Notes: generated from the sequence alone by a model not told the origin. A stretch of DNA of 64,000 bases from an uncultured Thermoplasmata archaeon (GCA_963768855.1 CAVYJM010000006.1:960001-1024000), one strand, 5' to 3'; counted from the stretch's first letter, positions 15,033-18,000 are shown. Made by a program: numbers and translations.

Positions 15033-18000
15033 TGTGGCTACGGCGATTAGTGGCGGCGGGCTGAACACGTCGCCCTTGCGAGCTTCGTGCGTACACCCCC
15101 GCTCTATCAACGCGGTCGACTACCGCGACCGTAAGATGCCTCGTCTTGAGGACGGTTTCCGGCTTAGATGCTTTCAGCCGTTATCCGCATGGCGCGTGGC
15201 TGCTGGGCAATGCCTTGCCAGACAACCCATACACTAGAGGCGCCGATCCCCCGTTCCTCTCGTACTTAAGGGACCTTCCCCTCAGGCATCAAAGCGCTTC
15301 CACCAAAAAGCAACAAACCTGTCTCACGACGGTCTGAACCCAGCTCACGATCCCTTTTAATGGGCGAACAACCCCACCCTTGGCAGCTCATGCACCACCA
15401 GGATAGGAAGAGCCGACGTCGAAGTAGCAAGCCTCCGGGTCGATAGGAACTCTAGCCGGAGACGACTCAGTTATCCCCGGGGTAACTTTTCTGTCATCCA
15501 TGGCCCCCACAAATGAGGCTCATGGGTTCGCTAGGCCCGAGTTTCCTCTCGTGGACTCTCGTTGGGCAAGTCCACGTCAGGCTGGCTTTTCCCCTTACAG
15601 TTAACGGAGGATTTCTGACCCTCCTAAGCCAACCTTTGGGCGCCCTTGTTATCTTTTTGAGGGCGTGGCGCCCCACCCAAACTGCCCACCTATCGTTGTC
15701 CCTCCGAAGGGGTAAGCCGTACGAGTTCAGAAGGGCGGTGTTTCATCGGTCTCTCGGTACCGACCTAGCGGTCGGCCCTTTGTAACGAGTCCCGCCTACG
15801 CTACACATCCAAACTCATACGGCAGCGACAGACTGCAGTAAAGCTCCACGGGGTCTTCGCTTTCAGGTGGAAGGTACTGGACTGTGCGCCAGTACGTCAG
15901 TTTCACCGGCCTCCACGCGGGGACAGTAGAGCTCTCGTTGGGCCTTCATGCAAGTCGCCAATTAAGCGACAAGGTATTACGCTCACATCTGTTACTTTCG
16001 AGACCTCTCCCTCGCGTTCACGTTCGTGTTCACATCGAGGGAATAGGCGGGTCGCGATTTCTCGCGGCCTCCCCATGTCGCCATGGGGGTCGGACTTTAT
16101 CTTCACCGCGCCGTCGCGGTGATCGGCGTAAAGTCTCTGAGGGTTCCGACCTCGTTTCGAGATCGGCCTTCCCTGCGGATTGTCCGCACCTCGAGATTTT
16201 TACCGCTCGCGCGGTACTCGAGGATACTCGGAGTTCCCCGCATATGGCCGATTTTTGTTAAGGCGACGTTTTCACCTTAAGAGGGTCATAGTTACCCCCG
16301 CCGTTTACTGGTCCTTCGTCCCGTTGAAACGAGCTTTCAGATACCAGCACTGGGCAGGCTTCAGCGGCCGTACACAACCTTTCGATCTGGCGGCCACCTA
16401 TGTTTTGGTTAAACAGTCGGGGCTCCCTTGTCACTGCGACCAGCCGCTCACGCGGCTGGCACCCCTTATACCAAAGGTACGGGGCTAATTTGCCGAATTC
16501 CCTCGCGTGGATTTTCGCCGACACGCCTTGGGCTTCTCACCCAGGGGCACCTGTGTCAGTTCTAGGTACGGACAGGCGGAATGACTCCAACGTAGTTTTC
16601 ACGGACACCACGGATCAGCAGACGGACTTGCGTCCGTGCTCCCGCATTCGCCCCCTTCTCGCCATTACGGCACTCCAGGGGTTTCAACGGTTGAATCGCC
16701 AGGCAAGACGACTCCACCTACCGCGATGTGTCGAACGTTGGACAGGGTTCCGCTTGGTGCAGGAATATTAACCTGCTTCCCTTTCGCGTTCCTCGGTTAG
16801 GGGAACACTTAGGACCGACTAACCCTCGGCTGACGAGCGTTGCCGAGGAACCCTGGCCCTTTCGGCGGTGCGGATTCTCACCGCACTGTGCTGCTACTCC
16901 TCCCAGGATCCTCATTCGAACGCGGTCCACCGGACCTCACGGCCCGACTTCGACCCGCGCACGACGCCCCTCTACAAGATCACCTTTCGGTGCTCTGCAG
17001 TATCGGTGACCGACTTAAGCCCCGTCCCTTTTCGGGGCCCATAATCTCGGCTGGTGAGCTGTTACGCTATCTTTGAATGATGGCTGCTTCTAAGCCCACA
17101 TCCCAGCTGTCTGAGACTACGAACTCCCTTTGGTATTCGCACTGAGTCGGCACTTAGGGACCTTAACTGCAGGTTGGGCGGTTTCCCTTACGAATGCCAA
17201 GATTACCCCAGGCACTCGACTCCCGGCTTCTACGGCGGCCACGGATTTGGAGTTCGACAGGACACCGACGGATTTCTCCGCCTTAGCACCCAATCGGTAG
17301 CTCTACCCCATGGCCTAACCTCCGCCGAGGTCCAGCTGCGACTGATTTCGAGGGGAACCAGCCATTCCCGGCCTAGATTGGCCTTTCACCCCTATGCCCA
17401 GGTCACCCCAGTGATTTGCACATCAACACGGGTTCGGCCCTCCACCTCCCTTTCGGAAGGCTTCAGCCTGCCCAGGCATAGATCGACCGGCTTCGGGCAT
17501 CGCACCCACGACTCCTCGCGAGCCCACGACGCGCCTCGCGCCTTGCGGCGTTGCGCGCATGTCGCTTTCGCTTCGGCTTCCCGCTTCCAGCGGTTAACCT
17601 CGCCGTGGATCAGAACTCCCTGGCCCGTTATTCACAACGGATAATACGACACCGCTCCACCCTTTCGGGCTTCGTCGCTTTCGTGCCGTATACGTCTGTA
17701 ACTGTCTGGTTTCAGGCTCTTTTTACCTCCCGTCAAGGGCACTTTTCAGCTTTCACTCGCGCTACTAGTGCACTATCGGTCTCGGGGCGTGTTTAGAGTT
17801 GGATGTTTATGCCACCCACCTTCGCGCGCGATATCCGACGCACGCTACTCTGGATCCTCCGAATCACCTTCCCCGCTTGCCTCTACGGGACTGTCACCCT
17901 CTTTGGTCGCGGCATTCCACCGGAGTTCGAGTTGACAGGGTAAGGTGTGCCGGAGTCCGAACACCACACCGCCGCCGTCTTTCAACGGAGGCTTCGGTTT

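Follow-up and report, generated by a model that had tools for sequence, protein, structure and literature searches.

An intact group I intron without an endonuclease gene at site L1931 of the 23S rRNA gene in an uncultured Thermoplasmata archaeon

The stretch of DNA analysed here, which is called the window in the following, comprises 64,000 nucleotides (nt) from an uncultured Thermoplasmata archaeon (GCA_963768855.1, CAVYJM010000006.1, positions 960001-1024000). On its minus strand, at 15029..18247, it contains a full-length archaeal 23S or large subunit (LSU) ribosomal RNA (rRNA) gene (RF02540, 2650 bits, model positions 1-2987), which is interrupted at 15984..16273, on the same strand, by a group I intron of 290 nt. 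The gene has a length of 3219 nt with the intron and of 2929 nt without it. The host is an uncultured soil or wetland Thermoplasmata archaeon, represented by a metagenome-assembled genome (MAG) of 24 contigs and 2.87 Mb with 66% GC, a completeness of 93.6% and a contamination of 7.7%, and its nearest named 23S exons are those of Thermoplasmata archaeon UBA8695 (97.5% identity) and of several soil Thermoplasmata MAGs (94-95%). In an earlier note on the window, made from the sequence alone, no second rrn copy had been seen, and this holds for the entire 2.87-Mb assembly, which has one LSU copy, one small subunit (SSU) copy and one group I match. The 16S (SSU) gene is located on the same contig of more than 1 Mb at contig position 582583-584049, unlinked to the 23S gene at a distance of about 390 kb, and is intron-less. 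A perfect 14-bp inverted repeat, TACCGATCATATGC / GCATATGATCGGTA, flanks the 23S gene at window positions 14971-14984 and 18273-18286, and the helix formed by it is a processing stem around this stand-alone gene.

The intron is inserted at L1931, between helices 69 and 71 (H69 and H71) of the 23S rRNA and more precisely between U1931 and A1932 in the E. coli numbering, as counted on the E. coli sequence. The archaeal LSU model is colinear with the gene apart from a single block, 291 nt long, that stays unaligned between model positions 2030 and 2032, and a deletion of window 15984-16273 gives back the universal H69-H71 sequence AAGGUAGCGUAA, with no possible shift of the boundary. The position, length and site named in the earlier note are exact according to this alignment. 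On the minus strand, the junctions read ...CCCUCUUAAGGU / GAAAACGUC GCCUUAA ... CAGAUGUG / AGCGUAAUACC, or in a longer reading CCCUCUUAAGGU / GAAAACGUCGCCUUAAC ... AACAGAUGUG / AGCGUAAUACCUUG; the first base of the intron is a G at 16273, and its last base is the terminal G (omega-G) at 15984. The note had proposed a search with covariance models, and in such a search RF00028 (Intron_gpI) scored 71.3 bits at a gathering score of 50 (E 4e-16), with this intron as the only match in the assembly. The alignment to RF00028 covers window 16071-16303, which means that it begins 30 nt inside the 5' exon and ends at P9, and boundaries taken from Rfam only would be 30 nt off at the 5' end and 87 nt off at the 3' end. 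As P1 comes to lie in the exon in the Rfam alignment, too far upstream by about 30 nt, the rRNA alignment was used for the boundaries, and the structure was built by hand and tested on homologues. The insert is a genuine and intact group I intron that has no open reading frame (ORF) of its own.

The homologues used for the structure are 29 distinct ORF-less L1931 introns of 250-360 nt from related genomes and from GTDB species genomes. All elements are on the minus strand. P1 (16258..16280) is formed by the exon sequence UUAAGGU (16280-16274) and the guide GCCUUAA (intron 10-16, window 16264-16258), with GAAAACGUC as the loop; its U-G wobble at the 5' splice site is kept in 29 of 29 homologues, the remaining pairs are canonical in 26-29 of the 29, and the terminal G is found in every homologous intron. 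A candidate P10 of 4 bp may align the 3' exon, with exon GCGU (+2 to +5, 15979..15982) pairing to intron ACGU (5-8, window 16269-16266), and judged by eye the homologues have a potential of 3-6 bp at the same place, in some cases with an offset of 1 nt. A P2 is absent, as had been noticed before, since the interval from P1 to P3 consists of CAAAAA only. The pseudoknot helix P3 (16122..16252) pairs AUCGGC (intron 22-27, window 16252-16247) with GCCGAU (147-152, 16127-16122); all six pairs are canonical in all 29 homologues, and five of the six have compensatory changes. A second possible partner of the P3 5' strand, GGCCGAU in P6a, was dropped as an alternative P3 because it is not conserved across the homologues.

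The P4-P6 domain (16141..16242) lies inside the span of P3 and is supported by covariation and by the minimum-energy fold. It consists of P4 (intron 32-37 with 95-100), P5 (42-45 with 88-91), P5a (52-57 with 79-84), P5b (60-63 with 68-71, capped by GCGA), P6 (101-103 with 131-133) and P6a (108-116 with 120-128), the last being a clean hairpin of 9 bp. The guanosine-binding helix P7 (16092..16137) is formed by G-A(bulged)-GACUUUA (intron 137-145) and UAAAGUCC (175-182) and encloses P3' and P8 (153-159 with 164-170, CACCGCG/CGCGGUG). The pairs G137-C182 and G139-C181 and the bulged A138 between them do not change in any of the 29 homologues, and one P7 pair varies among UA, AU and GC. P7.1 and P7.2, which are a mark of the IA subgroups, are absent between P7 and P3' in this intron. 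The 3' domain (15984..16088) comprises P9 (186-192 with 197-203, GCGA cap), P9.1 (205-212 with 217-224, GAAA cap), P9.2 (226-238 with 260-271) and the conserved tail GAAAGUAACAGAUGUG, which ends in the terminal G. P9 and P9.1 are supported by covariation, and in P9.2 the outer stem is conserved, the inner stem is found in the closest relatives only and the loop is lineage-specific. This P9.2 loop (window 16015-16035, intron about 239-259) contains the three tandem hexamers GUGAAC ACGAAC GUGAAC. Apart from the window, they are shared by its two closest relatives only (L011, L111), and as all other homologues are without them, they represent a lineage-specific expansion of the loop.

Much of this architecture had been recognized by eye in the earlier note. 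The strings quoted there for P, Q, R and S are all present, and P1 with its U-G pair, P3, the GCGA-capped P5b, the GCGA-capped P9 and two more hairpins on the 3' side are borne out by covariation. The helix of P8 was also right, with the exception of an added U and A that belong to P3' and J8/7, and the GAAA cap ascribed to P6a has to be corrected, as the loop is AAA (or GAAAC) and not a GNRA-type tetraloop.

In the alignment of the homologues, canonical pairing is seen in 97.8% of the cells for 60 core pairs, compared with 77.5% after column shuffling (none of 500 shuffles reached the observed value) and with 35-39% when the partners were slid by 1-3 columns, and 42 of the 60 pairs show double-sided, compensatory changes. 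As the homologues are related, these figures overstate independence, but the slid controls, in which the relatedness is kept, still show a clear signal. Also the unconstrained minimum-energy fold recovers P4 to P9.2, with -128 kcal/mol and z = -6.4, and none of 200 shuffled sequences was as stable.

Archaeal introns are classically removed at a motif of the bulge-helix-bulge (BHB) type, and a long processing stem is present in the flanks of the same 23S transcript; both would suit an insert that is a BHB intron, or else a decayed group I intron whose splicing has been taken over by the tRNA splicing endonuclease EndA. When the two splice sites were searched exhaustively and with relaxed criteria, the best BHB motif had 9 of 12 pairs, whereas shuffled introns gave 8.2 on average and 11 at most. 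With a motif score within chance, a best register that varies inconsistently across 9 homologues, and a ribozyme core that is under clear purifying and compensatory selection, this explanation was rejected and has next to no probability. The intron shares with the EndA-spliced BHB introns of archaeal rRNA, some of which carry LAGLIDADG genes, the insertion into conserved 23S regions, but unlike them it has no BHB motif and instead a complete, covarying ribozyme core.

The intron encodes no endonuclease, in agreement with the earlier note: the three ORFs that overlap it are spurious and have no Pfam match, and no remnant was found in P6a. One reading frame of the intron is free of stop codons for 91 codons. 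An ORF of 125 aa on the plus strand, antisense to the rRNA, has no Pfam match either and is taken as a by-product of the GC-rich sequence.

Among the 38 genomes of the host genus, the exact exon-intron junction is found in 9 and an empty L1931 junction in none. In 3 further genomes of the genus, the intron was detected by BLAST, with the exon being split by an adjoining L1923 intron or by a contig end, and the other genomes lack this part of the rRNA. The intron thus appears to be fixed in the host genus. In the order outside the host genus, L1931 is empty in 13 genomes and occupied in 6, as judged by the exact pattern. Within the genus, the identity to the window intron is 89% at an exon identity of 98.7% and 82-88% at exon identities of 94-95%, and since the intron identity follows the 23S exon identity, this fits vertical descent there; beyond the genus, the intron identity levels off at about 65-69%. 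The introns of several genomes of the genus and the order are identical to introns in GenBank records of Thermoplasmata archaea. As to the size, homologues of 250-254 nt exist at L1931 and one of 248 nt has been published, and the term "very compact" used in the earlier note is hence justified in a relative sense only.

An artefact of assembly or binning, in which the intron-bearing gene would be a chimeric join or a fragment of foreign rRNA, might be thought of in view of the estimated MAG contamination of 7.7%. The gene is however embedded in a contig of over 1 Mb, on which the 16S gene is found as well, the same intron is present in at least 12 congeneric assemblies, and the same intron-bearing locus is present in 20 public runs of 13 studies (sediment, wetland, soil and freshwater), with DNA contigs that bridge both splice sites. 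Such an artefact is accordingly extremely improbable.

With regard to the origin of the ORF-less state, relatives of the order (L051) and a further Thermoplasmatota MAG (L079) have the same intron core with a LAGLIDADG_1 ORF in the P6a loop, with Pfam E values of 1e-23 to 1e-24. Both ORFs, L079:6621-7318 with 219 aa and L051:1465-2181 with 197 aa, begin upstream of the P6a loop and cross part of the core in the P5 region, which means that the coding sequence overlaps with the catalytic RNA. It is plausible that the endonuclease was lost after fixation of the intron in the host lineage. The loss that the earlier note had proposed is in line with these LAGLIDADG_1 relatives and with the apparent fixation in the genus, but no remnant shows it directly.

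Indirect evidence for a removal of the intron from the rRNA comes from public sequencing runs. A stretch of 1261 nt was compared with the contigs of one DNA run (X4) and of three metatranscriptomes (X20, X8 and X17), with X20 and X4 being from the same study. In the DNA run, the intron is covered at about 8-23x and the exons at about 11x, and contigs span both splice sites. In the three RNA runs, the exons are found at depths of 1e3-1e6 and the intron mostly at zero, with a residue of 24x at its 5' edge in X8 and of 1-13x over its 3' part in X17. In X8, six RNA contigs jump from 15983 to 16274 and so omit exactly these 290 nt, and loose ends at 15983 (X8, X17) and at 16274 (X20) continue directly into the opposite exon. 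In the matched sample, intron-bearing DNA is thus about as abundant as intron-less DNA, yet the intron is nearly gone from the rRNA, which is indirect evidence of removal and is what splicing predicts. The near-absence from RNA contigs would be equally expected for an intervening sequence that is excised without ligation to leave a fragmented 23S rRNA, as in the case of bacterial intervening sequences. In RNA contigs and at loose ends, however, one exon is followed by the other precisely at the junction predicted, and the insert has every feature of a ligating ribozyme, including the P10 potential and the terminal G. In archaea, moreover, no 23S rRNA is known to be fragmented between H69 and H71, and excision without ligation is therefore very unlikely.

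The most likely mechanism of splicing can be derived from the intron family. The pre-23S transcript would fold into the P3-P9 core, with the guide GCCUUAA pairing to the exon sequence UUAAGGU as P1. An exogenous guanosine bound in P7 would attack after the wobble-paired U1931, the terminal G would then take the place of this guanosine in the same site, and P10 (ACGU/GCGU) would align the 3' exon, so that ligation of the exons would restore the continuous H69-H71 sequence. Neither another 23S copy nor, among the genomes of the genus, an empty site has been seen, and for this reason large ribosomal subunits can probably not be formed unless the intron is removed. All in all, the best explanation is an intact, IB4-like group I intron that is vertically inherited, free of an endonuclease and located in the single 23S gene, and a probability of about 0.88 is assigned to it. 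The claim of an intact and probably functional L1931 group I intron agrees with the covariance model, the covariation, the missing BHB motif and the RNA data.

Several points weigh against this explanation. The RNA data are assembled contigs from mixed communities, an intron-less junction contig that stems from relatives without the intron is found also in the DNA run X4 (10.8x), and many archaea have the same 30 nt of exon on either side of the junction. In the X8 joints, the shorter side has only 26 nt, and the junction contigs of 60-100 nt consist of universally conserved exon only. With an intron-less DNA allele and conserved junction flanks, the ligated junctions are not assignable to the host organism; a check for spliced junctions, as suggested in the earlier note, did reveal exact exon-exon contigs in RNA, but this restriction applies to them. 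In view of the MAG contamination of 7.7%, it is also conceivable that a second rrn copy may have been collapsed in the assembly. The label IB4-like is based on homology and shared features, and in the literature searched, no experimental splicing test of any archaeal group I intron was found.

The last point fits also with the possibility that the insert is a true group I intron that under physiological conditions needs a host protein for splicing, be it a maturase-like protein or a chaperone, as many organellar group I introns do. A P2 is lacking although the homologues in DPANN archaea have it, and the intron itself encodes no maturase or endonuclease. But covariation and intactness apply to the core as well as to every peripheral helix, tertiary contacts could be made by two conserved loops of the GNRA type (GCGA on P9 and GAAA on P9.1), and the RNA is GC-rich and strongly folding, with no hint in the sequence at a missing element. 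A dependence on a protein is thus unlikely, albeit not as improbable as the other alternatives.

Introns of this kind have been catalogued in archaea before. Nawrocki, Jones & Eddy (2018, NAR 46:7970, PMC6125680) described 39 archaeal group I introns, 27 of which are of subgroup IB4 and 16 of which are located at LSU/1931, which is the commonest archaeal group I site in that set and was, according to the same paper, already known as a group I site. Eight of these 16 introns are ORF-less (248-464 nt), and the others carry LAGLIDADG_1 (PMC6125680). Examples of the ORF-less introns are IB4.1 (281 nt, Thaumarchaeota), IB4.24 (248 nt, Micrarchaeota) and IB4.6 (PMC6125680). RF00028 found none of the introns of that paper, as stated therein (PMC6125680), and a search of the genome that holds the published IB4.14 intron with RF00028 gave no match. 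In our own data, a simple scan for the junction pattern detected group I-type L1931 junctions in the genomes of 59 archaeal species, whose annotations are Woese-, Pace-, Nano-, Micr- and Altiarchaeota, Halobacteriales, Methanomassiliicoccales, Thermoplasmata and others. The rarity and high interest that had been attributed to the intron in the earlier note are not supported in view of 16 out of 39 published introns at this site, 8 of them ORF-less, and of the 59 species genomes.

With the archaeal IB4 introns, the window intron has in common the gene, the site LSU/1931, the size class and the ORF-less state. The P7 pattern in the 2018 table is GAGACUN, with the second base bulged, and NAGUCC (PMC6125680), and the P7 strands of the window intron, GAGACUU/AAGUCC, are exactly those which the supplementary table of 2018 gives for IB4.6. 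Published IB4 introns and the relatives of the window intron alike have the LAGLIDADG_1 endonuclease and sister introns at LSU/1923 and SSU/1498. The intron further aligns along its whole core with the L1931 introns of DPANN archaea, which carry a P2 insert of about 70 nt, whereas the window intron has no P2. These features point to an IB4-like subgroup. The host is a different one, as the Euryarchaeota of the 2018 table come from a Hadesarchaea study and from a MAG of a halophilic archaeon (Podell13), whereas the window belongs to a high-GC soil or wetland Thermoplasmata archaeon, and nothing relevant on group I introns in Thermoplasmata was found in the literature searched. In comparison with the IB4 set of 2018, an apparent genus-wide fixation and an indirect sign of removal at the RNA level are added. 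Bacterial and organellar group I introns at L1931 share the rRNA site and the ribozyme class and differ in the domain of the host; those in the 23S rRNA of Thermotoga were reportedly described by Nesbo and Doolittle in 2003.

As the same kind of ORF-less intron at LSU/1931 was catalogued in archaea in 2018, the window intron is an added and well-preserved member, and the knowledge of archaeal introns is not changed by it. Beyond that catalogue, it contributes a Thermoplasmata genus with apparent fixation, an architecture without P2, and indirect evidence that in situ the intron is removed from the rRNA. It illustrates a late stage of the homing cycle, with an intron that appears to be fixed and an endonuclease that has probably been lost. 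The GC-rich form of 250-290 nt without P2 is a possible minimal model for archaeal group I self-splicing, and a compact and stable intron like this would be a reasonable substrate with regard to the self-splicing of archaeal group I introns, in vitro as well as in vivo. The chances are about even that its significance extends further, namely to a purely vertical persistence of a genus-fixed, endonuclease-free intron on whose ribozyme every large subunit depends, to metatranscriptomes that are the first in-situ evidence of an efficient removal of an archaeal group I intron, and to the potential as a minimal model.

Related introns are found at other rRNA sites of these archaea. In order relatives, a group I intron is present at SSU/1498 of the 16S gene (L039:1447-1697, and also in L035, L043 and L044), with the junctions ...AAGUCGU / AAAGUGCG ... 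GAACGUG / AACAAGGUA. Over positions 15-205 of the window intron, its core shares 78-86% identity with the latter, but it has a different guide (GCGACU), which suggests that one intron lineage may have moved between rRNA sites within these archaea. In some genomes of the genus and the family, as in L026 (G011:C7), L031 (G060:C90) and G074:C45, two related group I introns are situated side by side in the 23S gene, each with more than 60 bits to RF00028. The sites of these tandem pairs are presumably L1923 and L1931, and the same tandem arrangement has been published also for accession KP308720. Finally, an 1803-bp contig that is titled Nitrososphaerales archaeon (L111, JACWAI010000019.1) has exons that are 97.2% and an L1931 intron that is 89-91% identical to the window, and this contig is probably a Thermoplasmata rRNA contig in the wrong bin.

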